Source: a virus | Strand: one strand, 5' to 3' | Virus record (IMG/VR): IMGVR_UViG_3300025617_000013 | Span: 23,664 to 87,663 of that record | DNA: 64,000 bases | Shown here: positions 12,724 through 38,308 of the stretch, one piece after another | Layout: every line of letters begins with the position of its first letter | Position numbering within the stretch: position 1 is the stretch's first letter | Translations under genes and position numbers: made by a program | The notes under the pieces: generated by a model | What the model saw: the letters and a program-made list of their open reading frames with translations, nothing else | What the model was told of the DNA's origin: nothing | The model's database searches: none

Positions 12724-12741
12724 GAATATTTTTCTTATATT
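12713..12741 (+). promoter_or_regulatory. Putative early/middle promoter (TTGACA-17-TATATT)
   Basis: Near-consensus -35/-10 with a 17-nt spacer upstream of the primase. Confidence 0.65.
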
Positions 12742-12769
12742 AAACTAATAACTAGTTACAGAACATAGT

Positions 12770-14524: not shown

Positions 14525-15466
14525 ATGATAAAACTATCAGACATAATCTTAGAACAAAACAGTAGGCCAAAAGCTGTAATTATGGCAGGAGGAGCAGGTT
14601 CAGGTAAGACCTACCTACTCAACCAGTTAGGACTAGACAGTCTACTCAATCTCAACCCAGACAAGTACATAGAGGATCCCAACCATCCTTACTATAATAA
14701 ACTAGGTCCAGCAGCCAGCCAAGTAGCCAAAGACGCAGCAGCAGCAGCAGAAGAAGGTACTAGCTTTGTATGGGATACCACTGCATCTGGTGCTAGATTT
14801 GAAAAGCAGCTAGATGACCTGCTTGCAAAAGGATACGATGTATATATGGTAATGGTGTATGCACACCCAATGATATCTTATGTTTCTAATTTTATGGCTA
14901 GAGACAGAAATATACCTGCAGATGCTGTATTCTCTACTTGGAGAAATATCTACCAGAAAATAGAAGATTATAATAGAAAACTTAAAGGTAACTTATCTAT
15001 TTTTGTTTCTGATAGAGGAGGTAAATATAAGAAAGAAATAGAAGGATTCGATACTGCAGCCAAAAGTGGTTTAAGTGGAGTAAAAGACTACTTAGAAAAA
15101 TTTAACGAAAAAAACAGTATTGGAGGTTCGTCTTTCTTTAAACCAGTAGAAATGTCTACTGAAGAAGAAGAGGAGTTTAAAAAAGAAGTAGGAAGTATAG
15201 ACTGGAATAAAGATAATAGATCTGAAGATAAAGCTATAAAAACAGCATTCTTAAAAGCTTACCGAAAAAATGGTGTAGGACCTGGTCAAGATAAACTTAG
15301 AGATGCAGTTAAAAAGTATAGAGTAAGTAGTGAAAAAAGAAAGCAATCTGCTGATGAAGTATTAGATAATATTATCGATATGATATATAATCCTACTTTT
15401 CAAGAAAAACTTAAACACTCTACCCCTAAGGAAATAGATCAAAAAGTACAAACATTCTTAGCATGA
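14525..15466 (+). CDS. P-loop kinase (AAA_33/zeta-toxin/PNK-kinase-like) with MIKLSDIILE leader
   Basis: Walker A 'MAGGAGSGKT', 'NPD', 'FVWDTT' and lid 'RDRNIP'. Confidence 0.75.
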   Translation: MIKLSDIILEQNSRPKAVIMAGGAGSGKTYLLNQLGLDSLLNLNPDKYIEDPNHPYYNKLGPAASQVAKDAAAAAEEGTSFVWDTTASGARFEKQLDDLLAKGYDVYMVMVYAHPMISYVSNFMARDRNIPADAVFSTWRNIYQKIEDYNRKLKGNLSIFVSDRGGKYKKEIEGFDTAAKSGLSGVKDYLEKFNEKNSIGGSSFFKPVEMSTEEEEEFKKEVGSIDWNKDNRSEDKAIKTAFLKAYRKNGVGPGQDKLRDAVKKYRVSSEKRKQSADEVLDNIIDMIYNPTFQEKLKHSTPKEIDQKVQTFLA

Positions 15467-17789: not shown

Positions 17790-18149
17790 ATGACACAAAA
17801 AGAACTGCTAGAATCAGTATTATCTGAGCTTGTACATATTAAGAAGCATATGCCAAACGGCGAGCTTAAAGCAATGCTTATAGATGTAAAAGACCTAAAA
17901 GAAGATATGTCTGACCTTAAATTTACACTACTTAACCCAGAAAATGGTGTGATAGTTAAGACAAATCAAAATACTGAATTCAGAAAATTCATGCAAGGAA
18001 ACGAGAAAGAGTTTCAAGCCAAAATGATAGAGTTAGCAGAATTCAAAAGATGGAAAGAAGGAGTAAATAAAGCCCTTTGGATATTATTTACAGTACTTGC
18101 AGGTGTTGTAATTAAACTTTTATCTGAAGTCCTTAAATCAGGAGCATAA
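17790..18149 (+). CDS. Coiled-coil protein with C-terminal transmembrane helix (possibly holin-like)
   Basis: Hydrophobic 'ALWILFTVLAGVVIKLL' near the C-terminus. Confidence 0.5.
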   Translation: MTQKELLESVLSELVHIKKHMPNGELKAMLIDVKDLKEDMSDLKFTLLNPENGVIVKTNQNTEFRKFMQGNEKEFQAKMIELAEFKRWKEGVNKALWILFTVLAGVVIKLLSEVLKSGA

Positions 18150-18703
18150 TGTCAAACACTAAAAAGAAGATACCTGCAGATATACAAGCTTTTATGAGGG
18201 AACTCATACAGGAATCTTTACGTGATTGGTTTAAAAAAGAAAAGTGGGTTAGAATATCGTCATCTGGTAATATAGCAGGTCCTTGCGGAACATCTAAAAA
18301 TAAGAAGAATCCAGATAGATGCTTACCCAAAGCAAAGGCACAGAGTTTAACTAAAGGCCAAAGAGCCGCTACTGCAGCTAAGAAAAAGAAAGCAGGAGCT
18401 AAAGGTAAACAGGTAGTACCGAATACAAAAAAAGGAAAAGTAACAAAAGCATATGTTAGAGAAATGATACATCAAGTTATCATGGAAAAAGATGATAGAT
18501 GTACTCGCATTGCTAAACGTAAATACGATACCTGGCCATCAGCTTATGCTTCAGGAGCAGTAGTTAGATGTAGAAGAGGTGAAATCTGGAAAGGAGTAAA
18601 AGAAGAAACTCTTGATGAAATGAATTGCAAGTACGGTAAGTATTACTGCACAACCGATAAAAAATATAAGTGTAGAAAAGGACCTAAAAAGTCCAAAAAT
18701 TAA
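18149..18703 (+). CDS. Very basic multi-module hypothetical protein; probable head cargo
   Basis: Three Lys/Arg/Cys-rich segments, each preceded by an [ILV]xE site (LIQE, VIME, TLDE). Confidence 0.6.
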   Translation: MSNTKKKIPADIQAFMRELIQESLRDWFKKEKWVRISSSGNIAGPCGTSKNKKNPDRCLPKAKAQSLTKGQRAATAAKKKKAGAKGKQVVPNTKKGKVTKAYVREMIHQVIMEKDDRCTRIAKRKYDTWPSAYASGAVVRCRRGEIWKGVKEETLDEMNCKYGKYYCTTDKKYKCRKGPKKSKN

Positions 18704-19770: not shown

Positions 19771-22700
19771 ATGACGTACGATGAAATTAAGCAACGGCTA
19801 GCACAGGTTGAAAACACATTGCAAACTATCAGCAATACAGGAAAACCGGTATTAGTTAATTCATACACCGCTAAATCTTTAGAAAAACTAACTACTCTAA
19901 AAGAATCACTACAAAAACAATTAGCAGAAAAAGACGAGACTATGTTCATTTCTACCAAAGGAGGCGATACTAAAGCCGTTAAAATGGATAGAAAGACTGC
20001 CATGGATCTTAAAAAAGATCCTAACATTACAGGAATCGATACAGCAAAAGGTCAATCCTTAAAAGAAGTAGACAGATTAATTAAAAACTCAGGTGTAGAG
20101 TTTGATAAAAAGGAAGTAGCAATTGTTGCTAAATCTACCGGTAAAGCATTAGCCATTGCATTAAAGAAAGCAGGTGATGAAATCGCTAGAATGAAAGCTA
20201 TAAGATTGGATGTTAATAGTTTTGATGTAGAGGTAACGTATAAAGGTGAAAACAGAGGCTATGATGAGTTTTCTTTTTATATTACCGATAACGAGTTACA
20301 TCTAGTAGATTTTTCATTCGACAAAACACTAGTCCAAGTAGGTGTTAAGCCTTCAGGAGAACCAATCGTAAACGTGGATGTACTAGCAAATGAACTCTTA
20401 AAACACTTCAAATCTTTAAATGAGCAAGTAAACGAAGTAAACTACGATTATTACACTACCCCAAAACATTTTGATATCTGCCCAGGAGCTGAAACATTAA
20501 GAGATGAAGTTTTAGCAAGCGGTAAATCACCTGAAGAATTAGGAGAATGGACCTTTAAACATGACGAATTATTTAGATTAGAAAAAGCAGTCTTAAAAGC
20601 AAATAAAGCTGACGAAAGACATGTTAAAGTAGCTAAACAATTAGCAGGAGAAATTACTCACCTTTCTAGAGATTTAGGAATTGAAGCCAATAAAATAGGG
20701 TACTTAAAAGGGCACGTTAAGAAAATCGAAGATGTAGCTAACAAGACTGATGGACGTGGTGATAATATGTCATTAAGAAGCAGAGACATTTATGAAGGTG
20801 AAGGAGATGACCATCATTACATTAAAGTAAAATCACATGATTATAAGAAGGCTATGGCTATCTTAGATCAAAACATAGATCCAACTTACGTAAAAACAGA
20901 AGTAGTTGACGACGACGGAGCAGGTAACGTAATTATTTACTTTATATTCAGACATGAATACGGATTCGACGATATGTACGATGATCCAGAAGGTAAAGAA
21001 AACCCAGAATTTTATCAAGAACCAGACGAAGATCCAAATGCGTTTGTGTATGATGTAGTAATGGATTTACGAGCAAACGATATTGAACTAGCAGATCATT
21101 CAGCTGAAATGGATGAAGATTACGATCCAGATCAAGAGCAGAAACACGACGAAGAAGATCATGGAGTAGCATACGATGACGACGGAAGACCTCTAGGAGA
21201 GGATTTAGACGTTGGACATCAAGATGATGAGCCTAGTATGTTAAAATCTTCTGCTTTCGAAACAGCTACCTATGCTGCTAAATTAGCAAAGAAATTAGCT
21301 CAATATGATCAAGTAGACGGAGAAGTAGATTTTCCTAACTGGTGGCAAAAGAAATTAATATTAGCTAGAGACTATATGTCTGCAGCATATCACTACTTAG
21401 AATCAGAAGAAAAACAACCTCTTATTGATAAGTTAGCTTTAGAATCTGTTAGTGAAGTTTCTTTAAATAAGATACAAAAATCTTACGACCAGACAATTAG
21501 TATAATGAAAGATCTTGCTAAAAAATATAAGGCAGGAGACAAATCAGTAGTTGATCAATTAAAAACTTTAACTATAACAAAGAAAAAGTTAGAAAAGCAA
21601 TTAGATGATAAAATATCTGGCTCAGGAAGGGATCAAGAATTAACTATTAATGAATCAGCATCTAGAGATTTAGATGAAATATTTGGAGCATTAGGATATA
21701 GACAGGGGTTTGATGAATTTATTGAAGATAACCCAGGATGTGTAGAAGTAATAATGGAATGGATCGGAGGAATATCTGATTTTCAAGAAAAATTATCTCA
21801 AGAATACGATAATGAAGAGTTAGAAAATTTAGGATTTTACTTTGGCGATGATGATTATAACGAAGTAATTAGAGAGTCACTAAACCCAGAAGTATCCCAA
21901 GCAGTAAATCGTTTTATTAAAGCAATGGCTAAACGATATAGCTACAGCGAACAAGATGCTGTATTTGCTATCATGGCTGCTTTAAAACAAAGAAAATTTG
22001 ATGGTTTAAATGAAGCTAATAATTTACTTAAACAAGACGCATTATCACCTGCAGAATATCAAAAAGCTAAAAAATTAAAGGGATTTGATTCTAAAAATTA
22101 TAAATGGGATAAAGATCAAGAACTTCATTTAATTAGAAAAATGAGTGAAGATTTAGATGTAGGTAAAAAACCTCTGAAAGAATTTACTGATAATAGTTTC
22201 AAAGGTTCAGAACTAATCGACGATGCTAATAGTAACGCACCTGATATGTTTGGTAAACAAATATTTGCAGATCTATTACCTAAAGGAGTAGCTAGTGAAA
22301 ACGATGCAATTGAAGCTTTAAAGAAACATGATAAGAGTGGTATCAAAGCTAGAATGGGACAGTATGCTCCTATGTTTGTTCACGTTCAATACCATGAATT
22401 AGAGCATGAAGGTGAATACTATAGAATGCATCAAAGACAATACTATAACAGTAACTTTAAAGATAGAGACCCAGACTTTAATCCTGCAGTATCTAAAATT
22501 ACATTATTTAAGATTACTAAGAAAGCAGCAGATAGACGTGATAAAGAAGAAAAAGAAGTGTTAGGAACTATACTAGTTAAAACAGATCAGTACGTACAAG
22601 ATCTAAGAAACTTACCTGGATTAGGTAAGAGACATATGGAAGAAGCTACTAGACAAGATTTAGGAATGGTATCATCTATATCTAAACGTAGAGCTAAAGC

Positions 22701-23121
22701 ACACTTAAAGAACCCATCTAATGATGGATCTAAAGTATACGGTTTAGATAAGGACGGCAAAAGAGTTCATATTAAAAATATCAACGACGTAGATAAATTT
22801 ACAAAATTCGAAATTGATGCTGATTTAAAAGAAGCTAAAGGAGGTCAAATAATGCCTGGAGATTATGTTAAAAATCAACACGGTAATATTTACCAAAGAG
22901 TAGATGGAAAAGTCGGTAGACATGATGCTTATGTTAGAGTTACTAACGGCAAACCAGGTAAAAAGAAAACTGGCTTACATGACTCTTTTAAATTAACTTT
23001 AGTTAAGAAAGACGAATTAACTGAAGGAGCAACATGCTGCGGTAAATGCGGTAGAGTACATGTTAAAGGAAACTGTAAAAGACCTTTTTTAAAAGGAAAG
23101 TCTCACTGTAGAAATAAATAA
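19771..23121 (+). CDS. Large modular acidic protein; putative protease-processed internal head polyprotein
   Basis: More than 15 [ILVM]xE sites delimit short unrelated segments; two modules are shared with 23125. Confidence 0.6.
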   Translation: MTYDEIKQRLAQVENTLQTISNTGKPVLVNSYTAKSLEKLTTLKESLQKQLAEKDETMFISTKGGDTKAVKMDRKTAMDLKKDPNITGIDTAKGQSLKEVDRLIKNSGVEFDKKEVAIVAKSTGKALAIALKKAGDEIARMKAIRLDVNSFDVEVTYKGENRGYDEFSFYITDNELHLVDFSFDKTLVQVGVKPSGEPIVNVDVLANELLKHFKSLNEQVNEVNYDYYTTPKHFDICPGAETLRDEVLASGKSPEELGEWTFKHDELFRLEKAVLKANKADERHVKVAKQLAGEITHLSRDLGIEANKIGYLKGHVKKIEDVANKTDGRGDNMSLRSRDIYEGEGDDHHYIKVKSHDYKKAMAILDQNIDPTYVKTEVVDDDGAGNVIIYFIFRHEYGFDDMYDDPEGKENPEFYQEPDEDPNAFVYDVVMDLRANDIELADHSAEMDEDYDPDQEQKHDEEDHGVAYDDDGRPLGEDLDVGHQDDEPSMLKSSAFETATYAAKLAKKLAQYDQVDGEVDFPNWWQKKLILARDYMSAAYHYLESEEKQPLIDKLALESVSEVSLNKIQKSYDQTISIMKDLAKKYKAGDKSVVDQLKTLTITKKKLEKQLDDKISGSGRDQELTINESASRDLDEIFGALGYRQGFDEFIEDNPGCVEVIMEWIGGISDFQEKLSQEYDNEELENLGFYFGDDDYNEVIRESLNPEVSQAVNRFIKAMAKRYSYSEQDAVFAIMAALKQRKFDGLNEANNLLKQDALSPAEYQKAKKLKGFDSKNYKWDKDQELHLIRKMSEDLDVGKKPLKEFTDNSFKGSELIDDANSNAPDMFGKQIFADLLPKGVASENDAIEALKKHDKSGIKARMGQYAPMFVHVQYHELEHEGEYYRMHQRQYYNSNFKDRDPDFNPAVSKITLFKITKKAADRRDKEEKEVLGTILVKTDQYVQDLRNLPGLGKRHMEEATRQDLGMVSSISKRRAKAHLKNPSNDGSKVYGLDKDGKRVHIKNINDVDKFTKFEIDADLKEAKGGQIMPGDYVKNQHGNIYQRVDGKVGRHDAYVRVTNGKPGKKKTGLHDSFKLTLVKKDELTEGATCCGKCGRVHVKGNCKRPFLKGKSHCRNK

Positions 23122-23124
23122 GAT

Positions 23125-25833
23125 ATGCATAAGTTAGAAAAACTCATATTAGAGTCTTACGTCGAACTACTTAACGAAATGGATGGTGGTCGATTATTTG
23201 ATTATTTTGCTAATAAAGGATACAAAGTAACAGAACGTAGACCAGATGGTTATCCACCAAAACCAGGAGTAGAAGGATATCAGGTAAATAGGGGCAGTGG
23301 TAGATATCCTCAATCAGTAATATTTCAACATAATAAGGATACTGATGAATTTACAATCAGTAGAATGAGTGGATATAGAATTGATCAAAAAAATGCTATA
23401 AAAGCAGGAATGAGAGAAGCAGGCAGTTCAGGAGCAGCCGGTATGGATTCTTATATGACAGATGGTAACTACACACCAGTAGGTATTTCAGCTGAAGGCT
23501 TAAAAGATATAGTAGACCATGTTATGACTGGTTTAGATCGAGAAGCTAAAGCACAAGGTGACTTTTATAAAGCTAGAGGACGTACATCAGGTACTATAGA
23601 TGAAATGGCTAAAGCTGATATGGAAAAAAAAGCCGGCAGTAATGTTATCCAGTGGGAAGATCTTACAGATAAACAAAGAGCCGGGATCGTTAAAAGGTAC
23701 GGTGAACCAATGTTTAACGGAGAGCATGATTTCTTTAGTAAAGACATGACTACCTACTTTAAGACTAATAGTAAAAGTAAAGAAACAGGTAGTATAGGTC
23801 ATTCAATCATTACATTACCTTCATTCTCCTCCCTATATAAGAACTTCTCAGACATTATTAACGATATTAAAAAGTTAATGGGTTCTGATGATGTAAGGGG
23901 AGATGAAGCAGCTAGAGAGCTTTTTGATATCACTAAAACTAACTTTAGAAAACTACAAAGATACCTAAGAACAGAAAGACCTGAGCAATATAGAATGCTT
24001 AAAATGCAGAGAATGATGGAGGGTATCAAATCGTCTTTTTCTAAGATAGAAGAGAAGATGGATATTAATGATCCAGTTATGCTAAAAGTAAGACGAGCTA
24101 AAATGCATTCAGATAGAATGAAAAAATTAGATGCTTATTTAAAATCTCCTGAAGGTAAAGCTGCTGCACGAGCACAAGCTAGTGCTGAAAGAAAAGAACA
24201 AAAAGCTAGAGAGATAGTTCGTAAATTAAAGATCAAGAGAGCCCAAGTAGAAAGAGAGATGGAGAACGATCCAGACATCGAACCTCAAGGAGGCCCAGTA
24301 TCTGATATGTACGGAGACCAATTAAATAAAATTGACAATGCTATTGAAAAAGCAGCATCTGTATACAATAAACCTATGGACTACGATACAGCAGTCGGTA
24401 AAATAAATGAATTTGTAGGTGATGCTTGGGAAAAAAGAAATGGAATTCTTTATGACAAACTTGTTAAAGGTTCTGGAAAATCAGATACTGTAGAAGGAGA
24501 AATTTTGAGAGCAGTAAATAGAATTATATATAGATGGGGTAATGATGGAGATTACTTTTGGAAAGGGTACGGAACAGAAACAGTAGGTCCTGCTATATCA
24601 TACTTAGTTAATAGCTCAATGATACCACAAATAATCCAAAGTAAATTTAATGCTTGGGAAAGTAATAATGAAGGTAAAAATTACGGTATAAAAGAATTAG
24701 AAGATCTTCTTGCAATAGCTTTAGAGTATATAGAAAGGAAAGACGAAAGTGAATATTCTAAGAATACAGAAGATATGTTTGATTACGAATCTGAGTATCA
24801 AGATGAAGAAGAAGATGATTACGATGATTATGATGATTACGATGAAGAAGATGATGAATATTTTCAAGAAGGTTCTGCAACACATGATGATGGTGGAGAT
24901 TTAGATGTAGGACATCAAGATGATGAGCCTGCAATGCTAAAAAATAAAATGTATAGAGCAGCCAAACTTGCAAACATGCTATATGACAAGTTAGATGCTT
25001 ATGACCAAATGCCTCAAGAAGTAGACTTTCCAGATTGGTGGCAAACAAAGCTATCAAAAGCCAAAGATATGATTCAATCCTGCTATGATTACTTAGATGG
25101 AGAAGAAGGAATGGCTGAAAAAGATGCTGAGAATACACAACCAGATATCGCAGCACTAGCTTTAGAGAATGTAAATGAAGACAAATCAGACGCTATTAGA
25201 TGGTTCGGTAACTTAAAGTATTATTACCAAAAAGCCTTTACAGAACTTAAAGGTGAAGACAGAGAAACTTATAAGCAATTAACTAAAGACTTCTTTTCTA
25301 AACTAAAAATTGATAAACACGTACGCCCAGTAGGGTTATCTGAAAGTGAAGGACAAGACTTATCAGAATTAAAACCTGGAGATAAGTTTGAATTCAACGG
25401 AAAAACATTTACCTTAATACAACATATAGAAGGAAATATCGCTAAAGTAATACGACCAAACGGAGATACTTCAACAGTTTCTTTTGGAGGTAAAGTAAAC
25501 ACTGGAAAGAAAGCCGGTATTGGACCTGATGCTTTCGGACAAGGAAAAGGCCATCACATAGATGAAGATCATTCTAAAAACCCAAACGACAAATATGTTG
25601 TACGTCCATGTAAGAATAAGAAAGAGCCTTGGGCGGTATGGGAAGGTGAAAAGAGAGTTAAAGGATTTGCTGAAAAGAAAGATGCTCAGGCATATGCAGA
25701 CAAGCAAAATAAGGAACAGGGGCTAAACGAAGAAAAATCAACTTGTTGCGGTAAATGTGGTAGAAAACACGTTAAAGGAACAAAATGTAAAACTCCTTAC
25801 TTAAAAGGAAAAGATCACTGTAGAACTAAATAG
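23125..25833 (+). CDS. Large modular protein; putative internal head polyprotein
   Basis: Leader MHKLEKLILE...LLNE; modules shared with 19771 and 25835. Confidence 0.6.
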   Translation: MHKLEKLILESYVELLNEMDGGRLFDYFANKGYKVTERRPDGYPPKPGVEGYQVNRGSGRYPQSVIFQHNKDTDEFTISRMSGYRIDQKNAIKAGMREAGSSGAAGMDSYMTDGNYTPVGISAEGLKDIVDHVMTGLDREAKAQGDFYKARGRTSGTIDEMAKADMEKKAGSNVIQWEDLTDKQRAGIVKRYGEPMFNGEHDFFSKDMTTYFKTNSKSKETGSIGHSIITLPSFSSLYKNFSDIINDIKKLMGSDDVRGDEAARELFDITKTNFRKLQRYLRTERPEQYRMLKMQRMMEGIKSSFSKIEEKMDINDPVMLKVRRAKMHSDRMKKLDAYLKSPEGKAAARAQASAERKEQKAREIVRKLKIKRAQVEREMENDPDIEPQGGPVSDMYGDQLNKIDNAIEKAASVYNKPMDYDTAVGKINEFVGDAWEKRNGILYDKLVKGSGKSDTVEGEILRAVNRIIYRWGNDGDYFWKGYGTETVGPAISYLVNSSMIPQIIQSKFNAWESNNEGKNYGIKELEDLLAIALEYIERKDESEYSKNTEDMFDYESEYQDEEEDDYDDYDDYDEEDDEYFQEGSATHDDGGDLDVGHQDDEPAMLKNKMYRAAKLANMLYDKLDAYDQMPQEVDFPDWWQTKLSKAKDMIQSCYDYLDGEEGMAEKDAENTQPDIAALALENVNEDKSDAIRWFGNLKYYYQKAFTELKGEDRETYKQLTKDFFSKLKIDKHVRPVGLSESEGQDLSELKPGDKFEFNGKTFTLIQHIEGNIAKVIRPNGDTSTVSFGGKVNTGKKAGIGPDAFGQGKGHHIDEDHSKNPNDKYVVRPCKNKKEPWAVWEGEKRVKGFAEKKDAQAYADKQNKEQGLNEEKSTCCGKCGRKHVKGTKCKTPYLKGKDHCRTK

Positions 25834-25834
25834 T

Positions 25835-26887
25835 ATGGATAAAATACAAAAACTTATTTTAGAAGCATATAGTAAGGTATCTGAAAGAACTGAAGGTACT
25901 AAAAAACTCAAAGAACTACCAGATGCCTTTGTAAAAGCTCTAAGTAAAAAGTACGGAGAAGTAGATATGGAAAATGATTTCGTATCTCCCAACCTAGATA
26001 CATACTATAAACATACAAGTACTAATAAAAAAACCGGTAGTATCGATCATAAGATTTATGAACTACCTTCTTTTTATAAACTGTACGGTGAATTTGAATC
26101 TATTATAAGTGATATAAAAACTTTAATGGGAAACGAAGATGTACGAAACGATCAAGCAGCCCGTGAATTATTTGAACTTATCAAAACTAACTTTAGAAAA
26201 CTTCAAAGCTACTTAAGAAAGGAAAGACCAGATCAATATGCTATCATAAGAGGTAGAGCAGAATTAAAAGAACTACATGAATCTTTTTTAAAAACCGCTT
26301 CACTTATTAACGAGTCTTTAATTGATGAGTTAGAAGATAAACCAGAACCTGAAGAGGAACCTGATACTGATGCTCCAAAAGAAACTGTTCTTGAAGATGC
26401 TACAGATAAAATTTTAGGTAAATTTCCAACTTTAAAAGCTGCTATAACTAAACTTCAAACAGAAGACTTTAAAGAGTTTGTAGACAGTATAGATTGGATT
26501 TCACCCCGACCTACTTCTTTTCGTATTAATTTAAAAAACGGACAAGATTACGTTTTAAAATGGACAGGTAAATCATTTCAAGCTCAAATTTTAGGTAAAA
26601 GGTATTTACTTTCTAATATAGCAGACTATCAACAAGCTCTTGATAAATTAGCCATACTCTATAAAGAAGCACCTTTAAAAGGAGCAGGAGAAGGAGAAGG
26701 CGGAGAAACAGGAGATGAATTTACCGGAGGTGGAGGAGGAGATTTTCCTGGCGAAGAAGGTGGAGCAACAGGAGGTGAAGATGACTTTGCAGCAGACGAT
26801 ACCGGAGGCGGTGATGAAGGTGGCGGAGAAGATTTATCCGGTGAACCAATAGATTTTGAAGACACAGCAGAAGAACCAGAAGCATAG
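25835..26887 (+). CDS. Modular hypothetical protein with acidic Gly-rich tail; probable head protein
   Basis: Leader MDKIQKLILE; N-terminal module paralogous to a segment of 23125. Confidence 0.6.
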   Translation: MDKIQKLILEAYSKVSERTEGTKKLKELPDAFVKALSKKYGEVDMENDFVSPNLDTYYKHTSTNKKTGSIDHKIYELPSFYKLYGEFESIISDIKTLMGNEDVRNDQAARELFELIKTNFRKLQSYLRKERPDQYAIIRGRAELKELHESFLKTASLINESLIDELEDKPEPEEEPDTDAPKETVLEDATDKILGKFPTLKAAITKLQTEDFKEFVDSIDWISPRPTSFRINLKNGQDYVLKWTGKSFQAQILGKRYLLSNIADYQQALDKLAILYKEAPLKGAGEGEGGETGDEFTGGGGGDFPGEEGGATGGEDDFAADDTGGGDEGGGEDLSGEPIDFEDTAEEPEA

Positions 26888-27967
26888 ATGGATATTATAG
26901 ATAAATTATATACGGAATGGGCTTGGAGAACTAAAAATGGTACCCCAGATATTAATAACCCTGAAGATAAAGGTATTTTAGATTCTTTAATTAAGGAATT
27001 ATCCGGTAACGAAGGAGGAGTATCTAAAAAAGAAGTACTTACAGCTATTAATCAAGGAGATTTTACACCAGAACAGTTAAAATCTATACTTAATACTGTG
27101 TCCGGTCTTGCTTATAAAGCAGATATAATTAAATATCTTAATACAAAAGGGAAAGGTGTAAGTTCTATATCTAATAGAATTTATAACATTATGGTAGAAA
27201 ATGGTGATATTAAAACTTACCATGATGCAGTAACAGGAAACAAGTTACCTTCCTATAATGCTTTAGGAAGTGAAGGTAATTTAAAAAATCTTTTTTCAAA
27301 GTATTATTCCGCTGATACGATTAATTTCTTATTTGATATTAAACCTCAAATAGGTAACGTAGCTACCGGAAAAGGAGAAATATTACTTAGCGTATTATGT
27401 TCAGACGTCACTGGAGATACCAGAGCCGGTGATATAGAAGCTTCAGGAAAACCAGTAGAAGTAAAAAATAGAGGAGCAAAACCCTACGGACAGAAAGCAC
27501 AGTATGGAACTAATAGCGATAAAACGTTTATTGATTCTAGTGTAAAAAATACTCAAAGAATTGTTGGAGAGTTAGATCAGGTAGTAACTAAAGGTAGTAG
27601 ACCTTTTCATAGGTTAAATATTATTTTAAAAGCTGCTCAAGAAGTAGATAATACAAAAACAGAAGAAGTTATTAACGGATTCACCGAAGCGTTGAAGACA
27701 AGCTATCCAGGATTAGATTTAACAAACTTTGATTTAAAATCATTTAAATCTGGTACAGTATTAGATGCAGACAAGATTGAACAAGAATTCGGTAAATTAG
27801 TTATAGACCATTATAGAACTTTAGAGGATTTTGAAGAAGTTTTATTTTTAGATGATAAATCTGGTAATTATGCTAAAGTACCTACTGATAAACTAGTTAG
27901 TTTGGTTGGTACTAAAATAGCTGTAGTACAAAAAGACGGTCTTCCTCGATGGTCTTATAAATTTTAG
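26888..27967 (+). CDS. Putative PD-(D/E)xK nuclease-like protein
   Basis: 'GKGE...GDI......VEVK' catalytic pattern after an N-terminal leader ending in LIKE. Confidence 0.45.
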   Translation: MDIIDKLYTEWAWRTKNGTPDINNPEDKGILDSLIKELSGNEGGVSKKEVLTAINQGDFTPEQLKSILNTVSGLAYKADIIKYLNTKGKGVSSISNRIYNIMVENGDIKTYHDAVTGNKLPSYNALGSEGNLKNLFSKYYSADTINFLFDIKPQIGNVATGKGEILLSVLCSDVTGDTRAGDIEASGKPVEVKNRGAKPYGQKAQYGTNSDKTFIDSSVKNTQRIVGELDQVVTKGSRPFHRLNIILKAAQEVDNTKTEEVINGFTEALKTSYPGLDLTNFDLKSFKSGTVLDADKIEQEFGKLVIDHYRTLEDFEEVLFLDDKSGNYAKVPTDKLVSLVGTKIAVVQKDGLPRWSYKF

Positions 27968-31501: not shown

Positions 31502-32356
31502 ATGAAAATTAAGCATTCAAAATTCCGTAATACCGGTCTGATATTTGAACTACTAGTTAAGCAAGTAGCTTCAGATACTCTGAATAATAGAGATTCAGCA
31601 GCTGTAAGTATTATTAAAAAGTACTACGCTGGGAAGACTAGTTTAGCGAAAGAATATAAACTTTACGAATTTATAACTAAAAATAAAAACGTATCTCAAT
31701 CTAAAGCTGAAGCTATAGTTTCTACTATAACAGAGATTTCTAGAAAACTTGATCAAAAACTTCTCAAAAAACAGAAGTATGAACTTATATCTGAAATTAA
31801 AGCTAATTACAATATAGATGAGTTTTTCAGTATACAGGTAAGGGATTACAAAGGTTTAGCTGCATTATACTGTTTACTAGAAGCACAAAATAATTCTAAT
31901 TTAGTTAATCCGCAAACTTTAGTAGATAATAAGACTACTATATTAGAGCATTTAACTGAAGAACCTCAAAAGGAAAAGAACGTTAAGGATACATTAATAG
32001 AAGATTATTCTAAATACGATAAAGACCTTAGGTTACTTACTTTTAAAATATTACTAGAGAAGTTTAACGATAACTATAAAGACTTACTCCCACAACAGAA
32101 AAGAATACTTAAAGAGTTTATAACCTCAGTTAATTCAGATACAAGATTACGTAATACTGTTAACGAAGAGTTAAGTATAATTCTTTCTGAAATTAAGTCA
32201 CTAATAGGAAAAGTAGAGGATAAAGTAATAAAGATTAAATTAGACGAAATAACTAAGACTATTAAACCTTTATCTAATAAAGAAAAAGTTACAGATAGCC
32301 ATTTAGTTAACCTGATGCAATATTACGACTTAATACAGGAACTAAAGAATATATGA
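31502..32356 (+). CDS. Head-module hypothetical protein (helical; possible prohead core component)
   Basis: Lies between portal and protease; 284-aa helical protein. Confidence 0.55.
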   Translation: MKIKHSKFRNTGLIFELLVKQVASDTLNNRDSAAVSIIKKYYAGKTSLAKEYKLYEFITKNKNVSQSKAEAIVSTITEISRKLDQKLLKKQKYELISEIKANYNIDEFFSIQVRDYKGLAALYCLLEAQNNSNLVNPQTLVDNKTTILEHLTEEPQKEKNVKDTLIEDYSKYDKDLRLLTFKILLEKFNDNYKDLLPQQKRILKEFITSVNSDTRLRNTVNEELSIILSEIKSLIGKVEDKVIKIKLDEITKTIKPLSNKEKVTDSHLVNLMQYYDLIQELKNI

Positions 32357-32592
32357 AACGATCTGAATTAGTTAATCTAGTTAAAGAAGTTTTAGGGGAG
32401 TTAGATGAAGCAAACGTAACCGGTGGATCAGCAACCTTTACACCAGGTACCGGAGCACAATATGCTACTCCTAACGCCTTTTCAAAAAATAAAAAAGGTA
32501 ACAGAGCAACAAAATTATTAAAGAAATTAGGCTGGAAAAAGCAGGAACGCCCAAAACGGCCATCACATACTAAAATGTTTGACTACTTATGA
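32353..32592 (+). CDS. Small head-associated protein with cleavable-looking leader
   Basis: MKRSELVNLVKEVLGELDE followed by a Gly/Thr linker and a basic tail. Confidence 0.55.
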   Translation: MKRSELVNLVKEVLGELDEANVTGGSATFTPGTGAQYATPNAFSKNKKGNRATKLLKKLGWKKQERPKRPSHTKMFDYL

Positions 32593-34691
32593 GACAGGTA
32601 ACTGCAACAGAAAAATATAGAGCCGTAAACGAAGGTAAGCTCGCTGAAGGCGAATTCGTACGTCAAATGCGCTTATCTTACCCTTCAGTTATTTCGCAAT
32701 GGAGTAGCTTTAAGGATACTGTAACTATACTTAAAAATAGAGGATATATCACAGAAAAATCAGGAGTTGATACTTATGATAGTCGAGTTAATTTAAACAT
32801 CTCTCCTAATTCAATAGATAGAGGAGTTCGTTATGAATTAAGTGGACAAGATGTTGATCCTACAACTACTACAGATAAAGAACTTGTAGCTAAAATCACC
32901 GACAGAGTAGTTAAGAACCTTAAGAAAGATCCACTTCACTATATTAACTTATTATCAAAGGAATCTAATAAAGTAGATAAACATGATAAAGAAGTTGAAA
33001 CTAAAAGAGGAGCAAAAGATAAAGACGTTATAAACGGTTTGAAGAAAGCAACCTTGAAGGAAGATTCTACTCCTAAACAGAAAGACTTTTATGCAGATTA
33101 TACTGACATAGGTATGTTCTATATGGAGAAACATGGAAATATCTATAAAGGTAAAGAACAGGTACTATCAGATGCACAATATGAGGATTTAGGAAAGAAG
33201 ATTGTTGATCAGCTGTATGATGGAGATATAGCAAAAGCATATGATGATTTAGCAGTTCCAGGATTAGACGCTGCCGCCAAGAGGTTAGCTGATGATGGTA
33301 AGCTTATCAATCCTCAAAAAGTAGACGGTACTCCTGTAGAAGAAGAAGACGGATACAATACAGATCCTAACCTTCAAATGCATATCGATGATGAAGAGTG
33401 GGAAAGAGAAATGGGAAGAGGCCCTAAAGAAGACGTAGTTAAAGAAGCAGGTAAAGCCGCTCTTATTCAAACTATGAACAATGCAATCTCAGCTATTAAA
33501 GGTAAATACGGTAAAATATCAGGTATTTCTGGTATCATTAGAGATTTTTTAAAGACACATTTAGATGACTTAGCAAATGGAGCAGATCCATTAGATGAGT
33601 TTGAAAACTTTGTAGATATTAACTATGATTCATTATCAGAAACAGAAATATCTGAAGAAGATATAGATACAGATGGATATGTAGAATCAATGGGACCAGA
33701 ATTTGATGTAGCAGTAGAACAATTAGTCGCTGCATTTGAAGATTGGAAATCGGGTCCAATGACTGAACCGGAAATGATTCCTTATGCAGTAAAAGATGTA
33801 ATCGGATACCTGCAAGGCAAATTAGGAGGAACTTTAGCTGAAGCAGCTGGACCAGATCCAGAATCTATTTGCCCGGAATGTGATGGTTCAGGATGCGACC
33901 ACTGTGACGGTACAGGAGCACACAAAATAAGAGAAGAAGATTATGTTCCAAAAAGAAGAGGTGCATTAGAAGAAAGAGTAGGAGGATTACAAGAATTTAT
34001 TTCGTTAATAGAAGATAGAGCAGCAGAAAACGACACTACAGAAGCTGATGAAGCAGAAGAAGTAGTTTATGCTATAGGTGACCATTACAACTTTGGTGTA
34101 GACATTATGCATGCTCCAAACGAAGCTAAAGGAAAAGATCATGACGGAGATGGAGACATCGATGGAGATGATTATATGGCTGCTAAAGATAAAGCTATCA
34201 AAAAAGCCATGGGTAAAGATGAAGCTTTTTTAAAGGAAAATATTAAATCAATTATTACTAAAGTTCTTGAGGAAGAAGTAATCGTAGAAGCAGCTACAGG
34301 TAATCTTGCTAAATACTCAGAAGAGTATGGAGGATTTGAAGGTCTACCAAATGCTATTAATCAACTTGAGAATATAGTTACAGATGTAGAGTCTTACTAT
34401 AACAAGGTTAGAGAGAAACTTCAAAAAGTATACAACGATATAGGTAATATTACCAATGAAGAAGGTTTAAAAGTTGGAGGATTTATCGCACCATCAATTG
34501 AATCTGCTTTCCTTAAAGATCTTAAACCAGTAATTGCTAAAGGATTTACTAAAGGATTAGAAACTCCTAAAGTAAAAACTATTTCTCAAGCCGATATCAT
34601 GTCAGCAAGAATGGAACAGGGATTAGATGAGAAAGAGATAGAAGAGAAACAAACAATGTTTACTCCGGTTCACGAAACTAAAAAGAAATAA
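32589..34691 (+). CDS. Acidic modular prohead core/internal polyprotein-like protein
   Basis: Many [ILV]xE sites; embedded CPECDGSGCDHCDGTG zinc finger and DHDGDGDIDGDDY Ca-binding-like loop. Confidence 0.55.
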   Translation: MRQVTATEKYRAVNEGKLAEGEFVRQMRLSYPSVISQWSSFKDTVTILKNRGYITEKSGVDTYDSRVNLNISPNSIDRGVRYELSGQDVDPTTTTDKELVAKITDRVVKNLKKDPLHYINLLSKESNKVDKHDKEVETKRGAKDKDVINGLKKATLKEDSTPKQKDFYADYTDIGMFYMEKHGNIYKGKEQVLSDAQYEDLGKKIVDQLYDGDIAKAYDDLAVPGLDAAAKRLADDGKLINPQKVDGTPVEEEDGYNTDPNLQMHIDDEEWEREMGRGPKEDVVKEAGKAALIQTMNNAISAIKGKYGKISGISGIIRDFLKTHLDDLANGADPLDEFENFVDINYDSLSETEISEEDIDTDGYVESMGPEFDVAVEQLVAAFEDWKSGPMTEPEMIPYAVKDVIGYLQGKLGGTLAEAAGPDPESICPECDGSGCDHCDGTGAHKIREEDYVPKRRGALEERVGGLQEFISLIEDRAAENDTTEADEAEEVVYAIGDHYNFGVDIMHAPNEAKGKDHDGDGDIDGDDYMAAKDKAIKKAMGKDEAFLKENIKSIITKVLEEEVIVEAATGNLAKYSEEYGGFEGLPNAINQLENIVTDVESYYNKVREKLQKVYNDIGNITNEEGLKVGGFIAPSIESAFLKDLKPVIAKGFTKGLETPKVKTISQADIMSARMEQGLDEKEIEEKQTMFTPVHETKKK

Positions 34692-34702
34692 TAATATAAA
34701 TT

Positions 34703-35281
34703 ATGTCACAACTATTAGTAGACGTTACCCCTTTTAAACCAACTATTAGAGAATCCAAAGAAAAACCCGGAGTCTTTGAAGTAGAAGGTGTATTACAAAG
34801 AGCAGTAGCTAAAAATCAGAATGGACGTACTTATAGTAAAGACATCCTAATGAGAGAAGCTAAGAGATATGTTGAAGAGTTCGTAAAGGTAGGTAATGCC
34901 TTTGGAGAACTCGACCACCCTGAATCCCCAGTTGTCTCTTTAAAGAACGCCTCCCATATAGTAAAGGATTTATGGTGGAAAGGAGACGACCTTATGGGAC
35001 GTGTTGAACTATTAAATACACCAGCCGGTAATATTGTAAAAGAGATATGTAAAGCAGGTCATACAATAGGTATCTCATCTAGAGGAACCGGTTCAGTACA
35101 ACAAACAAACGAAGGTACTTTAGAAGTACAAGACGACTTTGAATTAGTATGTTGGGACTTTGTATCTAATCCATCTACACATGGAGCATTTATGAACCCA
35201 GTATCCTTAAATGAAGGTAAAGTTAAAGTATCTAAATATTCTAATTTAGATTCAATTATAAACGATATTTTAAGAGCCTAA
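34703..35281 (+). CDS. Prohead protease (T4 gp21-like)
   Basis: 'NQNGRTY', 'GELDHP', 'GISSRGTGS' and 'WDFVSNPS' motifs. Confidence 0.93.
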   Translation: MSQLLVDVTPFKPTIRESKEKPGVFEVEGVLQRAVAKNQNGRTYSKDILMREAKRYVEEFVKVGNAFGELDHPESPVVSLKNASHIVKDLWWKGDDLMGRVELLNTPAGNIVKEICKAGHTIGISSRGTGSVQQTNEGTLEVQDDFELVCWDFVSNPSTHGAFMNPVSLNEGKVKVSKYSNLDSIINDILRA

Positions 35282-35465: not shown

Positions 35466-36698
35466 ATGGCAAACAAAGATTTACTTAAGCAAGCTATTGC
35501 TGAAGCCAAATCCGTACGTGAAGCCGCTATTGCTAACGCTAAAGAAGCTTTAGAAGAGACTTTAACTCCTCACCTAAAAGATATGTTAGCTGCTAAACTT
35601 CAAGAGATGGAAGATTCATCTGTAGAAGAAGAAGTAGTAAATGAATCTATAGAAGAAGAGATTGAAGAAACTGTAGAAGTAACTGAAGAAGAAACAGTAG
35701 AGGAAGAAGTACTAGAAGAGGTACCAGCAGCAGTAAAAGAAGCTGAGGATGACTCTGAAGAATCAGAGGACGAAGCTGAGGAAGAAATCGAAGAACCCGC
35801 TGAAGAAGAGGGTGAAGAAGAAACAGTTGAAGGTGACGAGGATCTTGGAGACTTAACAGTAGACCAGTTCAAAGATATGATCCGTGACATAATCGCTCAA
35901 GAACTTGACCACGATGGTGGTGAAGAAGAACTTGGTGCTGATATGGACGCTGGGGATATTGAAGGAATGGGAGATGAAGAGTCTATGGAAGAACCTATGG
36001 AACTTGATGCTGCTTCTGACGAAGAAGAGATCGACTTAGACGAACTTTTAAGAGAGTTAGACGAAGTAGATGAATACGGCTCTACTAGACAAAGAGACCG
36101 TGCTGATTCTGCTGCATCAGGTCTAGAGAACATTGTAAAAGGATTAACAGCTCTTTCTAAAAAAGCAGGTCCAGCCGCTAAAAAAGCATATGCTGCTTTA
36201 CAAGCTTTAGGAGCAGGAGCAGGTTATGCAATGCGTAACGAAGGAGACCAAGATGGAGACGATGAAGCTCTATCACCAGAGGAGTTAGCAAATAAACATG
36301 CTGGTTCTCCAATGAAAGAAGATAGAGATAATTCTGAATTATCAGAAGCGTTAGAGACTGTTGAAGCTCTACGTAAAGATCTTCAAGAAGTAAACCTTCT
36401 TAATTCTAAATTACTTTATGTGAACAAAATCTTCAAGGCTAATAGTCTTTCTGAATCACAAAAAGTAAATGTAATTGCTGCTTTTGATAAAGCAGAAACA
36501 GTAAAAGAAGTAAAATTAGTATTCGAAACAGTTTCTGAAAATGTAGCTACTCCTAAAAAGGAGAATGTAACTGAAGCTAAATTAGGCATGGCGTCTAAAG
36601 CAACAGGTACTACAGCAACAAAACCAGAAATCATTGCAGAAAATTCTGCAGTACATCGTATGCAAGTTTTAGCTGGTATTAAACCAAGACAATTTTAA
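35466..36698 (+). CDS. Prohead scaffolding protein (gp22-like position)
   Basis: Highly acidic coiled-coil protein between protease and capsid genes. Confidence 0.8.
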   Translation: MANKDLLKQAIAEAKSVREAAIANAKEALEETLTPHLKDMLAAKLQEMEDSSVEEEVVNESIEEEIEETVEVTEEETVEEEVLEEVPAAVKEAEDDSEESEDEAEEEIEEPAEEEGEEETVEGDEDLGDLTVDQFKDMIRDIIAQELDHDGGEEELGADMDAGDIEGMGDEESMEEPMELDAASDEEEIDLDELLRELDEVDEYGSTRQRDRADSAASGLENIVKGLTALSKKAGPAAKKAYAALQALGAGAGYAMRNEGDQDGDDEALSPEELANKHAGSPMKEDRDNSELSEALETVEALRKDLQEVNLLNSKLLYVNKIFKANSLSESQKVNVIAAFDKAETVKEVKLVFETVSENVATPKKENVTEAKLGMASKATGTTATKPEIIAENSAVHRMQVLAGIKPRQF

Positions 36699-36724: not shown

Positions 36725-38308
36725 ATGGAAATTAATTCATTATTAGAAAGCTCAAACTCATATAAGAGTTTACAGGCTGACTCAGCAAAATTAGCTGACA
36801 AATGGTCTGCTTCAGGTTTACTTGAAGGTATTGAGGATAATCGCTACAAAAACAACATGGCGATGATTCTTGAGAACCAAGCAAAACAAATCGTAGCAGA
36901 AGCAAATAGTACTAACGTAGGAGGAGGATCTTTCTCTGCTGGCTCTGGAGAGCAGTGGGCAGGAGTTGCTTTACCTTTAGTAAGAAAGGTATTCGCTCAA
37001 ATCGTTGCACAAGATTTCGTATCTGTACAACCAATGAACTTACCTTCAGGTCTAGTATTTTATCTAGATTTCAAATACGGTGATACTGCTAACGGTAGAA
37101 CTGATAACGACAACATGTACGGTAACGTATCTACTGCTAACGATAAAATGGCAGTTAACGAAGCTGTAGCTGGTGGTCTTTATGGAGCTGGTCAATTTGG
37201 ATACTCAATCAATGAAGTAGACGGTACTGCTGTATCTGCTTCTGTATCTAATGCAGATTCTGCTTCTGTAAACTATGAAGTAGGAATTTCTCCTGCATCT
37301 TACGATGAAGTAGCTGTACCAGTTTCTTCTATCTCTAACTTTGACGCAGAAGGTATCCGTGCTTTCCGTTTAACATCTGCATCTGTTGCTGTAGCTACAT
37401 TAAACCAGTATACGAAAGTAGAAGGTTCAAACGTAGTGTTTGTAACTGCTGATGGAGCTGTATCTACTGACGATACTGTAGTAGTAAAATACCACAAACA
37501 ACCAGTTGATAACGACAGAGGAGACTTTGAAGCAACAGGAGCTAGAGCTGTAGAAAACTTAGCTATTCCAGAAATCGACGTAAAACTTGCTTCTGAAGCA
37601 ATCGTTGCTAAAACTAGAAAGTTAAAAGCACAGTGGACACCAGAGTTCGCACAAGATCTAAATGCTTACCATTCAATTGATGCTGAAGCTGAATTAACAT
37701 CTTTATTATCTGAGTACATCTCTATGGAGATTGATTTAGAAATTTTAGATATGTTAATCTTAGGTGCACGTACAACTGAACACTGGTCAGCTGAGAACAA
37801 CAAAGTATGGAGTGGAACTAACTGGACTACTGATACTTCTGATTTCTATAATACTCAAGGACAATGGTTCCAAACTTTAGGAACTAAAATCCAAAAAGTA
37901 TCTAACAAGATTCACCAGAAAACTTTAAGAGGTGGTGCTAACTTCGTAGTAGTATCTCCAACAGTTGCTACAGTATTAGAGTCTATCCCAGGATTTGCTG
38001 CTTCTACTGACGGTGATCAAATGGACTTCAATATGGGAGTACAACGTGTAGGTTCTCTTGCAAACAGATTTAAAGTTTACAAGAATCCTTATATGACTGA
38101 GAACATTGCTCTTTTAGGATATAGAGGATCTCAATTCTTAGAAACAGGTGCAGTATATGCTCCTTACGTTCCATTAATGATGACTCCATTAGTATACGAT
38201 CCGGAATCTTTCACACCAAGAAAAGGTTTGATGACTCGTTATGCTAAGAAGATGATCAGACCAGAATTCTACGGTAAAATTCATATCTCTGACTTAGATC
38301 AGATTTAA
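36725..38308 (+). CDS. Major capsid protein (T4 gp23-like)
   Basis: 'VSVQPMNLPSGLVFYL', 'AKTRKLKAQWTPEFAQDLNAYH..DAEAEL', 'YAPYVPL' and 'FTPRKGLMTRY'. Confidence 0.96.
   Translation: MEINSLLESSNSYKSLQADSAKLADKWSASGLLEGIEDNRYKNNMAMILENQAKQIVAEANSTNVGGGSFSAGSGEQWAGVALPLVRKVFAQIVAQDFVSVQPMNLPSGLVFYLDFKYGDTANGRTDNDNMYGNVSTANDKMAVNEAVAGGLYGAGQFGYSINEVDGTAVSASVSNADSASVNYEVGISPASYDEVAVPVSSISNFDAEGIRAFRLTSASVAVATLNQYTKVEGSNVVFVTADGAVSTDDTVVVKYHKQPVDNDRGDFEATGARAVENLAIPEIDVKLASEAIVAKTRKLKAQWTPEFAQDLNAYHSIDAEAELTSLLSEYISMEIDLEILDMLILGARTTEHWSAENNKVWSGTNWTTDTSDFYNTQGQWFQTLGTKIQKVSNKIHQKTLRGGANFVVVSPTVATVLESIPGFAASTDGDQMDFNMGVQRVGSLANRFKVYKNPYMTENIALLGYRGSQFLETGAVYAPYVPLMMTPLVYDPESFTPRKGLMTRYAKKMIRPEFYGKIHISDLDQI

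Follow-up and report, generated by a model that had tools for sequence, protein, structure and literature searches.

Putative head-loaded polyproteins with prohead-protease-type joints in an uncultured T4-type phage

Introduction

The prohead protease of phage T4, gp21, cleaves its substrates C-terminally to the Glu of L/I-x-E, and processing is blocked when P1 is Asp (PMC9026906). In phiKZ-type phages, propeptides carry several processing sites (PMC10052503, PMC9026906), and polyvalent proteins are long, multidomain chains presumed to accompany the DNA and to be divided into individual units (Iyer et al., 2017, PMC5512222). Here we analyze three adjacent open reading frames (ORFs), P0001, P0002 and P0003, in a 64,000-nucleotide stretch of viral DNA (hereinafter the window; positions 23,664 to 87,663 of the IMG/VR record IMGVR_UViG_3300025617_000013), which encode strings of small modules with [L/I/V/M]-x-E at the joints between them. 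We consider it fairly probable (roughly 0.66) that these proteins are head-loaded polyproteins that the prohead protease of the phage cuts into mini-proteins, and the best explanation of the data includes at least two further ORFs of the window (18149-18703 and 32589-34691) as head precursor polyproteins.

The source is an 87.7-kb IMG/VR viral contig, ~53% complete, of which the window is a part. The closest cultured relative is Flavobacterium phage vB_FspM_immuto (genus Immutovirus; hereinafter immuto), a 160-kb Baltic Sea myovirus whose portal protein shows 72.6% identity to that of the window, and the window phage is an uncultured T4-type, Immutovirus-like phage with Flavobacterium-like hosts. 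A previous, sequence-only reading of the window had interpreted the chains as polyproteins that a gp21-like protease cuts inside the head, with possible delivery of many effectors at once. The present analysis partly supports this interpretation; cutting, location in the prohead and effector delivery are the parts that we infer.

Module architecture of the three proteins

In the polyprotein region, every gene is on the + strand, and the three ORFs are confirmed at 1116, 902 and 350 amino acids (aa). Their parts are given below, with a slash for the predicted cut.

19771..23121, + strand: predicted polyprotein 1 (P0001), 1116 aa, ~13 predicted pieces; joints conserved and coincident with homology breakpoints
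19771..20436, + strand: conserved N-terminal domain of P0001, aa 1-222, which heads the module-E protein in most related loci
21202..21456, + strand: module E copy 1 (DLDVGHQDDEP...EVDFPxWWQ), P0001 aa 478-562, with PLGE/ before and LALE/SVSE/ after
23026..23118, + strand: C-terminal basic Cys/His peptide of P0001, 31 aa, net charge +9, C-x2-C-x3-H-x4-C, with ELTE/ before
23125..25833, + strand: predicted polyprotein 2 (P0002), 902 aa, ~10 predicted pieces, delineated by the ORF, the joints and the structure model
23125..23178, + strand: leader of P0002, MHKLEKLILE/SYVELLNE/, with an amphipathic 10-residue peptide ending in I-L-E
23179..23604, + strand: module A (MDGGxLFD...RGxTSGTIDE/), P0002 aa 19-160, an alpha/beta domain
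23605..24054, + strand: module B, P0002 aa 161-310, common to P0003
24055..24411, + strand: module C, P0002 aa 311-429, long helices, ends with KINE/
24412..24870, + strand: module D, P0002 aa 430-582, a helical bundle with a disordered D/E/Y-rich acidic tail
24871..25179, + strand: module E copy 2, P0002 aa 583-685, a helical hairpin (model confidence 93-96), with LALE/NVNE/ after
25180..25344, + strand: module F', P0002 aa 686-740, helical, ends with GLSE/
25345..25566, + strand: module F, P0002 aa 741-814, a small KOW/SH3/Tudor-like beta-barrel, ends with HHIDE/
25567..25731, + strand: module G (HSKNPNDK...), P0002 aa 815-869, three strands and a helix (model confidence 95), ends with GLNE/
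25732..25830, + strand: C-terminal basic Cys/His peptide of P0002, 33 aa, net charge +9, C-x2-C-x3-H-x4-C
25835..26887, + strand: predicted polyprotein 3 (P0003), 350 aa, consisting of leader MDKIQKLILE/AYSKVSE/, module B', an acidic linker, a C-terminal module and a Gly/Asp/Glu tail

The joint Glu residues of P0001 are 218/222, 342, 449, 477, 558/562, 628, 702, 748, 804, 958, 1021 and 1085, and its joints read VNE/VNYDYY, DIYE/GEGDDH, EMDE/, LALE/SVSE/VSLNKI, TINE/SASRDL, VIRE/SLNPEV, GLNE/, PLKE/FTDNSF, HMEE/ATRQDL, DLKE/AKGGQI and ELTE/GATCCGKCG. Those of P0002 are 18, 160, 310, 429, (582), 681/685, 740, 814 and 869. The predicted pieces of the three proteins comprise 17-222 aa and alternate between isoelectric points (pI) of ~4.1 and 9-10, in agreement with the abrupt changes of composition that had been noted at these sites. 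Several modules are shared between the proteins: module B of P0002 and B' of P0003 show 50% identity (residues 177-309 and 26-153, respectively), residues 547-749 of P0002 match residues 436-637 of P0001 in the module E region (43% identity over P0002 552-734), and the C-terminal 33 residues of P0001 and P0002 are 73-75% identical. The conserved C-terminal module of P0003 spans aa 188-290.

In the window (24790-24870) and in relatives alike, module D always ends with 20-40 residues of Asp, Glu and Tyr (e.g. DYDDYDDYDEEDDEY), with which the protein itself often terminates. This tail may be a DNA mimic or a counter-ion.

Exchange of modules among related phages

A scan of viral contigs yielded 48 related loci, and an exhaustive profile search with P0002 against representative proteins (50%-identity clusters, E<=0.001) showed that at least 2,370 clusters carry the modules; the search with P0001 added 599 matches, none of which is named or contains a Pfam domain. 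Searching cultured phages with tblastn, we found matches only in four Immutovirus records, by module E alone. Because whole-protein MAFFT alignments of the shuffled homologues misplaced modules, they were replaced by region alignments anchored on collinear relatives.

The relatives found in these searches carry the modules of P0001-P0003 in a different order or combination, as tandem copies, or singly as genes of their own, as had been anticipated from the sequence. For example, module A, which is N-terminal in P0002, occupies residues 958-1108 of a 1183-aa protein and 35-183 of a 213-aa protein; module D often is the C-terminal unit or a stand-alone gene following a short leader, and in one locus (L012) precedes module A; in another locus (L008), the first 311 residues of P0002 are fused to most of P0003. 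A single chain can hold many unrelated units, with 10-13 modules in P0001 and P0002 whose order is shuffled among relatives, and modules turn over between phages with 85% identical terminases. Division of 462 family proteins at junction-supported motifs gave 2,455 sites (median 3 and maximum 20 per protein) and 2,654 pieces with a median size of 81 aa (interquartile range 54-139). These pieces form ~100 recurrent clusters, 38 of them with at least 10 members, which is a rough count because single linkage chains some clusters.

A module-E protein is encoded within the head gene cluster in all 48 loci. In one arrangement, it lies 5' of the gene for the P0003 C-terminal module, which is followed by TerL where the locus extends that far; the P0003 C-terminal module is found 3' of the module-E protein in nearly all related loci that reach this point. 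In another clade, the module-E gene is located directly 5' of the protease gene, with a 9 bp gap in one contig. The gp079 protein of immuto (841 aa) combines a module-E chain, an internal Cys/His peptide ending in FKNE/, an internal copy of the leader (ELKEIMLEAYIEVLQE/) and the P0003 C-terminal module; as gp079 joins these units in one ORF, gene fusion and fission happen at joints. In the 372-aa relative P0074, a module of the form ATRQDL...EIDADxNE/ is tandemly duplicated ahead of module A, which shows module amplification within one chain.

Placement and specificity of the joint motif

The total number of [ILVM]xE motifs in the three ORFs is at the background level: P0001 contains 20 compared to 19.1 in composition-preserving shuffles (p=0.45), P0002 16 compared to 14.2 (p=0.37), and P0003 10 compared to 7.9. 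Enrichment at joints and avoidance within modules cancel each other so that the total looks like chance, and counting alone neither supports nor refutes a role of the motif. It is the placement of the motif, not its count, that upholds the observation.

To follow the motif across neighbors, contexts were treated as independent when their flanks were less than 50% identical to each other. By this measure, [LIVM]xE is present at the 5' joint of module A in 33/33 contexts and at its 3' joint in 35/36, at the 5' joint of module D in 33/34, ahead of the Cys/His peptide in 19/19, and at the two joints of module G in 9/9 (5') and 6/8 (3'); one further joint type of the seven counted has the motif in 4/4, and the 5' joint of module E has it in 35/59. 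The motif therefore stays with the joint irrespective of the neighboring module. In the stacked instances, module A is always preceded by [LIVM]-x-E, with an optional A/E ahead of MDGG, and ends in T-[IV]-D-E; the start of module D reads [LI]-[NK]-E/F-[VI]-G-G, and module G has [LIV]-x-E/[DS]-H-S at its 5' joint and L-[NTSK]-E at its 3' joint.

An unbiased all-against-all BLAST comparison of the family gave ~1,450 internal block starts and a similar number of internal block ends, and 55-56% of these homology breakpoints have the motif within 6-8 residues, compared to 27% of random positions. This strong enrichment is the outcome that the sequence-only reading would expect from its proposed boundary check, and the edges of the shared modules and of all other modules delineated with ~460 relatives fall on [LIVM]xE. 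The signal peaks at single positions, with 213 blocks ending exactly on Glu (baseline ~45) and 241 starting on the P3 residue. In the 462 family proteins, given [LIVM] at P3, Glu is enriched 7.9-fold at block ends, compared to 0.8 for Asp, 0.4 for Gln, 0.7 for Lys and 1.0 for Gly. The residues found at P3 of the joints are L (308), I (161), V (147), M (83) and A (37), that is, in the order L > I ~ V > M. Within the modules of P0001-P0003, the motif is depleted (20 observed, 33.8 expected; P=0.0035, for joints picked after inspection of the data), and 17 other proteins of the window, used as a control, contain 145 motifs with 128 expected.

The tetrapeptides previously proposed as boundaries are all present in the proteins; nevertheless, LALE, with Ala at P3, is not a strict [ILVM]xE, and TLKE, SLKE and RMME lie within modules rather than between them. 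Too few relatives align at KMSE to place it as a joint or as an internal site.

Predicted structures of P0002

Structures were predicted with AlphaFold2 (AF2) for residues 1-590 of P0002 (mean predicted local distance difference test score, pLDDT, 78) and for residues 581-902. The first model contains a leader helix (2-17), the alpha/beta domain of module A (21-151), module B (163-311), long helices (317-414), and a helical bundle (433-540) followed by the disordered acidic tail of module D. Module A mostly has block-mean pLDDT of 84-93, with 60-67 at aa 81-120, and drops below 50 at 151-160, next to TIDE160; a further dip is located at 311-320 by KIEE310, and pLDDT again is below 50 at 416-426, just ahead of KINE429. 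In the second model, segments with pLDDT below 50 at 672-684 (LALE/NVNE), 728-741 (GLSE) and 796-813 (HIDE) divide the module E hairpin, a helical module, a beta-barrel with pLDDT of ~95, the three-strand-plus-helix module (95) and the weakly modelled Cys/His hairpin. The joint residues E18, E160, E310, E429, E681/685, E740 and E814 are in segments with pLDDT below 50-60, and E869 is in a shallower dip (60-76). As regards the non-joint hydrophobic-x-Glu sites of P0002, E37, E524, E748 and E840 are within blocks above 84, and E98, E299 and E665 within blocks at 64-73. The expectation of small independent domains with linkers at the xxE sites is thus borne out for P0002 by confident domains separated by low-confidence joint segments.

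A Foldseek search of the Protein Data Bank (PDB) with both P0002 models gave no hits at E<=0.001, with weak matches only between module A and the C-terminal domain of T4 MotA (probability 0.5) and between module F and SH3/KOW/Tudor barrels. In a wide VIA-align comparison, module F aligns with domain I of EF-P (Z 6.9, root-mean-square deviation 2.5 over 55 residues) and has the appearance of a generic small barrel. An assignment of module A as YbjN/DUF2299-like was considered and not adopted because its structural neighbors in the ESM Atlas are weak (TM 0.4-0.5). In sequence searches, P0001 and P0002 have no match in the PDB at E<=1; Pfam and PHROG searches with P0001, P0002 and P0003 matched no family, T4 IPI/IPII/IPIII/Alt included, and Pfam gave zero matches for six relatives of 1390-1527 aa.

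The protease, its predicted site in the capsid protein, and the N-terminal leaders

The genes for the predicted cutting enzyme and for the proteins of the prohead are located downstream in the same window:

34703..35281, + strand: gp21-family prohead protease, 192 aa, the predicted cutter (phrog_207, E=7.7e-51)
35466..36698, + strand: acidic scaffold protein with an [ILVM]xE excess (28 vs 17.8 expected)
36890..36901, + strand: predicted maturation site of the major capsid protein (MCP), I-V-A-E59/A, in the same alignment column as L-T-E65/A of T4 gp23

The protease gene is 8 kb downstream of the polyprotein genes. Its product can be aligned with T4 gp21 across the His and Ser motifs and has SLNE/G close to the C-terminus. 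All five larger related contigs that were tested encode a gp21-family protease. The MCP was assigned by its match to phrog_138 (E=3.5e-77). The position of the cut in T4 gp23 is well established, and the T4 database record lists gp23 as cleaved by gp21; the predicted site of the window MCP, IVAE59/A, which corresponds to LTE65/A in T4, appears in relatives as IVSE/A and LVVE/A. At the level of sequence, the joint rule [L/I/V/M]-x-Glu matches both the rule of the T4 gp21 family and the form of this predicted MCP site.

The leaders of P0002 (MHKLEKLILE/) and P0003 (MDKIQKLILE/) consist of 10 residues ending in I-L-E. Of 817 ORFs in the window and the related loci, each read from its first Met, 24 begin with the pattern M-x(1-2)-K-h-x(2-3)-h-h-h-E, compared to 0.7 expected from shuffles; among 3,734 internal Met positions, 2 match. 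It is found on several unrelated proteins, including a kinase of the window:

14525..15466, + strand: zeta-toxin-like P-loop kinase (PF06414, E=1.8e-13) with leader MIKLSDIILE

This leader is retained on the kinase orthologues in four loci (L008, L017, L025 and L051), and the kinase is a possible single-module cargo. The stand-alone relatives of the modules consist of a leader, a site and a single module. T4 IPII and IPIII start with MKTYQEFIAE, as checked in ipII and ipIII of the T4 genome. In a more distant clade (loci L047, L050 and L051; ORFs at 6093, 9883 and 10210), a leader MDKLRQIIRE is followed by a Cys cluster of the form CGCGC-x-GKCG.

Other genes of the window

Downstream of P0003, the gene order is a 359-aa ORF, TerL, the T4-type portal (PF07230, 8e-71), 284-aa, 79-aa and 700-aa ORFs, and then the gp21-family prohead protease, the acidic scaffold and the gp23-type MCP. 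Among the neighbors in the window, Pfam matched only TerL, the portal and the zeta-like kinase; PHROGs also matched the protease, the MCP, PhoH, a head-tail adaptor and a virion structural protein, and linked a 184-aa ORF to families of unknown function. [ILVM]xE is overrepresented in the scaffold and in the 284-aa and 700-aa ORFs. Two ORFs share modules with the P0001/P0002 family:

18149..18703, + strand: 184-aa ORF, a putative small member of the polyprotein system that shares a module exchange with the relative P0034
32589..34691, + strand: 700-aa mosaic protein, directly 5' of the protease, modules exchanged with the P0001/P0002 family

In P0034, module A is inserted precisely at the ETL(D/N)E/ joint of the 184-aa ORF, and relatives at the position of the 700-aa ORF carry modules E and G. 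The 184-aa protein is basic, with a 'WPSAYASGAVVRCRRGEIWKG' module and a Cys-rich tail, and its three parts are separate genes of ~90-150 aa in other loci.

The 359-aa ORF (26888-27967), located between P0003 and TerL, corresponds to gp078 of immuto. Its first ~35 residues (MDIIDKLYTEWAWRT..GTPDINNPED) are kept in most related loci, and the remainder is similar in some relatives only, with no detectable similarity in others; the ORF may be a further case of a variable protein with a constant tag at its N-terminus. The 79-aa ORF (MKRSELVNLVKE...; 32353-32592), flanked by the 284-aa and 700-aa genes, occupies the same slot as immuto gp072, which matches an internal segment (129-183) of the polyprotein relative P0039; the small gene at this position is thus a polyprotein module elsewhere. 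The window opens with a single 2844-aa ORF (116-8650) that has a low Glu content (3.6%). Two deposited annotations of immuto (NC_055915, L001) appear doubtful, namely, the 'DNA polymerase phi-like protein' gp067 (20627-21868), which is a homologue of the acidic scaffold, and the 'cob(I)alamin adenosyltransferase' gp077 (12632-13633), which is in the variable slot 5' of TerL.

Proposed mechanism and alternative explanations

We propose that the chains, strings of small, independently folding modules of ~30-220 aa each, would be made late and taken into the assembling prohead, with entry through the short leader (M-x-K-L-x-x-L-I-L-E) and/or through the conserved module E or the N-terminal domain. 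The prohead protease (34703-35281) would then cut after the joint Glu and release ~13 + 10 + 3-4 pieces (~25) of 3-25 kDa, in which very acidic ones alternate with very basic ones and which would include the two basic Cys/His peptides of 31-33 aa. By analogy with T4, we infer that the folded pieces of 3-25 kDa would be retained in the head together with the DNA and be ejected along with it at infection, where they may have functions of their own. From one related phage to another, modules are exchanged, duplicated, inserted or lost, or become separate genes, with the changes falling exactly at the joints, so that the set works as an exchangeable cassette library. A further-reaching version, which we put forward tentatively and regard as somewhat doubtful, is that tailed phages across a large aquatic group of T4 type, to which the window phage belongs, would make combinatorial polyproteins drawing on at least 100 mini-domain families, cut at every joint and co-injected as a fast-evolving anti-defence or host-takeover cocktail with a Gag-like logic; new cargo would be gained by in-frame insertion at a joint, and the basic zinc-knuckle peptides would be nucleocapsid-like.

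Several observations weigh against cutting in the head and a cargo role. Apart from the background-level totals, the joint upstream of module E lacks Glu in P0002 and likewise in ~40% of independent contexts, and in the distant clade P3 at this joint is often Lys. The junction statistics were drawn from related sequences that are not fully independent, and the joints of the depletion test were picked post hoc. P0001 and the 700-aa protein have different N-termini without the leader, and the similarity of the leader to the T4 capsid targeting sequence (CTS) is one of pattern, not demonstrable homology. No module has a recognisable function in the Pfam, PHROG, PDB and fold searches, so that the notion of cargo rests on architecture and on the T4 analogy. 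The literature yielded no virion proteome for this phage group and no evidence of cleavage or packaging for the phage or its relatives.

The main alternative is that the chains are cut, but are prohead-core or scaffold accessories like T4 gp22, gp67 and gp68 that finish their job before cleavage, with roles in assembly, size control or charge balance, so that the fragments would be expelled or serve as inert counter-ions, that is, assembly debris rather than cargo. We consider this unlikely, although it has tangible arguments in its favor: module-E proteins fill the gp67/gp68 slot beside the protease in some relatives, long acidic stretches occur as in the scaffold, most related loci retain module E and the P0003 C-terminal module as a conserved core, and T4 core proteins are also cut into several fragments (PMC9026906). 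It fits less well with most modules being confidently folded small domains (pLDDT 84-97), and the turnover between phages with 85% identical terminases, together with the ~100 recurrent module families, suits arms-race cargo better than scaffold; by analogy with T4 IPI*, folded domains of 6-18 kDa would be unlikely to escape from the shell.

Still less probable is an interpretation of the chains as uncleaved multidomain proteins in which hydrophobic-x-Glu is a structural or recombination signature of linkers. Short motifs can persist as helix caps, and tail fibres and similar modular phage proteins shuffle at conserved linkers; against this, one three-residue rule applies on both sides of dozens of unrelated folds, singles out Glu from Asp and Gln, is avoided within modules, is found in disordered linkers rather than in helices, and matches the rule of the protease family encoded nearby as well as the MCP maturation site. 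Recombination at conserved linker DNA was rejected as the cause of the joint motif because three residues with a free middle position are too short to guide homologous recombination. Chance can be virtually dismissed: [ILVM]xE is common in Glu-rich proteins, the sequence-only reading listed every occurrence, the totals equal the shuffle expectation and several listed sites are internal to modules, yet the boundary statistics, the residue specificity and the interior depletion exclude this explanation. Cutting of head-loaded chains into mini-proteins by the prohead protease thus remains the preferred reading.

If the joints are cut, this would be a general, so far undescribed route by which phages place many variable small proteins in the virion from a single gene. 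A very large pool of unannotated metagenomic proteins (at least 2,370 50%-identity clusters, with no Pfam domains among those inspected) would then be explained, [LIVM]-x-E in a linker would become a simple rule for parsing such proteins into functional units, and the resulting list of candidate injected mini-proteins could be screened against bacterial defence systems. Such chains could also serve as a natural design by which several proteins are loaded into T4-type capsids. The cultured relative immuto, with gp079, makes the cutting directly testable.

Comparison with known systems

In the literature, we found no description of mobile mini-domain strings jointed by prohead-protease sites. 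The T4 internal proteins IPI, IPII, IPIII and Alt belong to a T4-type phage with a gp21-family protease, as here, and their short leader ending in I/L-x-E (MKTYQEFIAE/) is resembled in pattern by those of P0002 and P0003 (MHKLEKLILE/ and MDKIQKLILE/); the T4 cargo is small, folded and variable among related phages, as are the putative cargo modules here, and the T4 leader-site-module layout is that of the stand-alone relatives described above. They differ in having one cargo per gene and one cut, compared to up to 13 modules per chain here (up to ~20 joints in relatives) with a predicted site at each joint, and have no sequence similarity to the modules, for which packaging and cutting are predicted. 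The genes of the T4 core proteins gp22, gp67 and gp68 adjoin that of the protease, and the proteins are cleaved into fragments at several L/I-x-E sites (PMC9026906); the scaffold and its 284- and 700-aa neighbors in the window are similarly enriched in the motif. The gp67/gp68 slot, between portal and protease with several motifs, is occupied by the 700-aa ORF and by the module-E proteins of one clade; P0001-P0003 themselves are upstream of TerL, outside this slot. In contrast to the conserved folded domains that shuffle as units here, the T4 core proteins are single-purpose and degraded.

The inner-body or ejection proteins of phiKZ, 201phi2-1 and SPN3US are similar in that they are processed after Glu by a gp21-related protease (gp175/gp245). 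However, the motif in phiKZ and SPN3US is S/A-x-E, as opposed to L/I/V/M-x-E here, where the S/A-x-E form does not characterize the joints (A 37 at P3 vs L 308, I 161, V 147 and M 83), and processing there is mostly the removal of an N-terminal propeptide, rather than involving mobile module strings. Polyvalent proteins resemble the window proteins in their high mosaicism and in the comparison to RNA-virus polyproteins; they differ in containing known enzyme and effector domains together with an embedded zincin-like peptidase (MPTase) for self-processing. By Pfam, no zincin-like or other peptidase and no effector domain was detected in P0001-P0003 or in the six relatives of 1390-1527 aa, and the predicted cutter here is a separate prohead protease. 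Retroviral Gag offers a functional analogy only, in which a chain is cut by a protease within the particle, as is predicted here, and carries a basic, zinc-knuckle-like Cys/His peptide; there is no homology between the two, and the knuckle spacing (C-x2-C-x3-H-x4-C in the window proteins), the type of virus and the assembly pathway are different.

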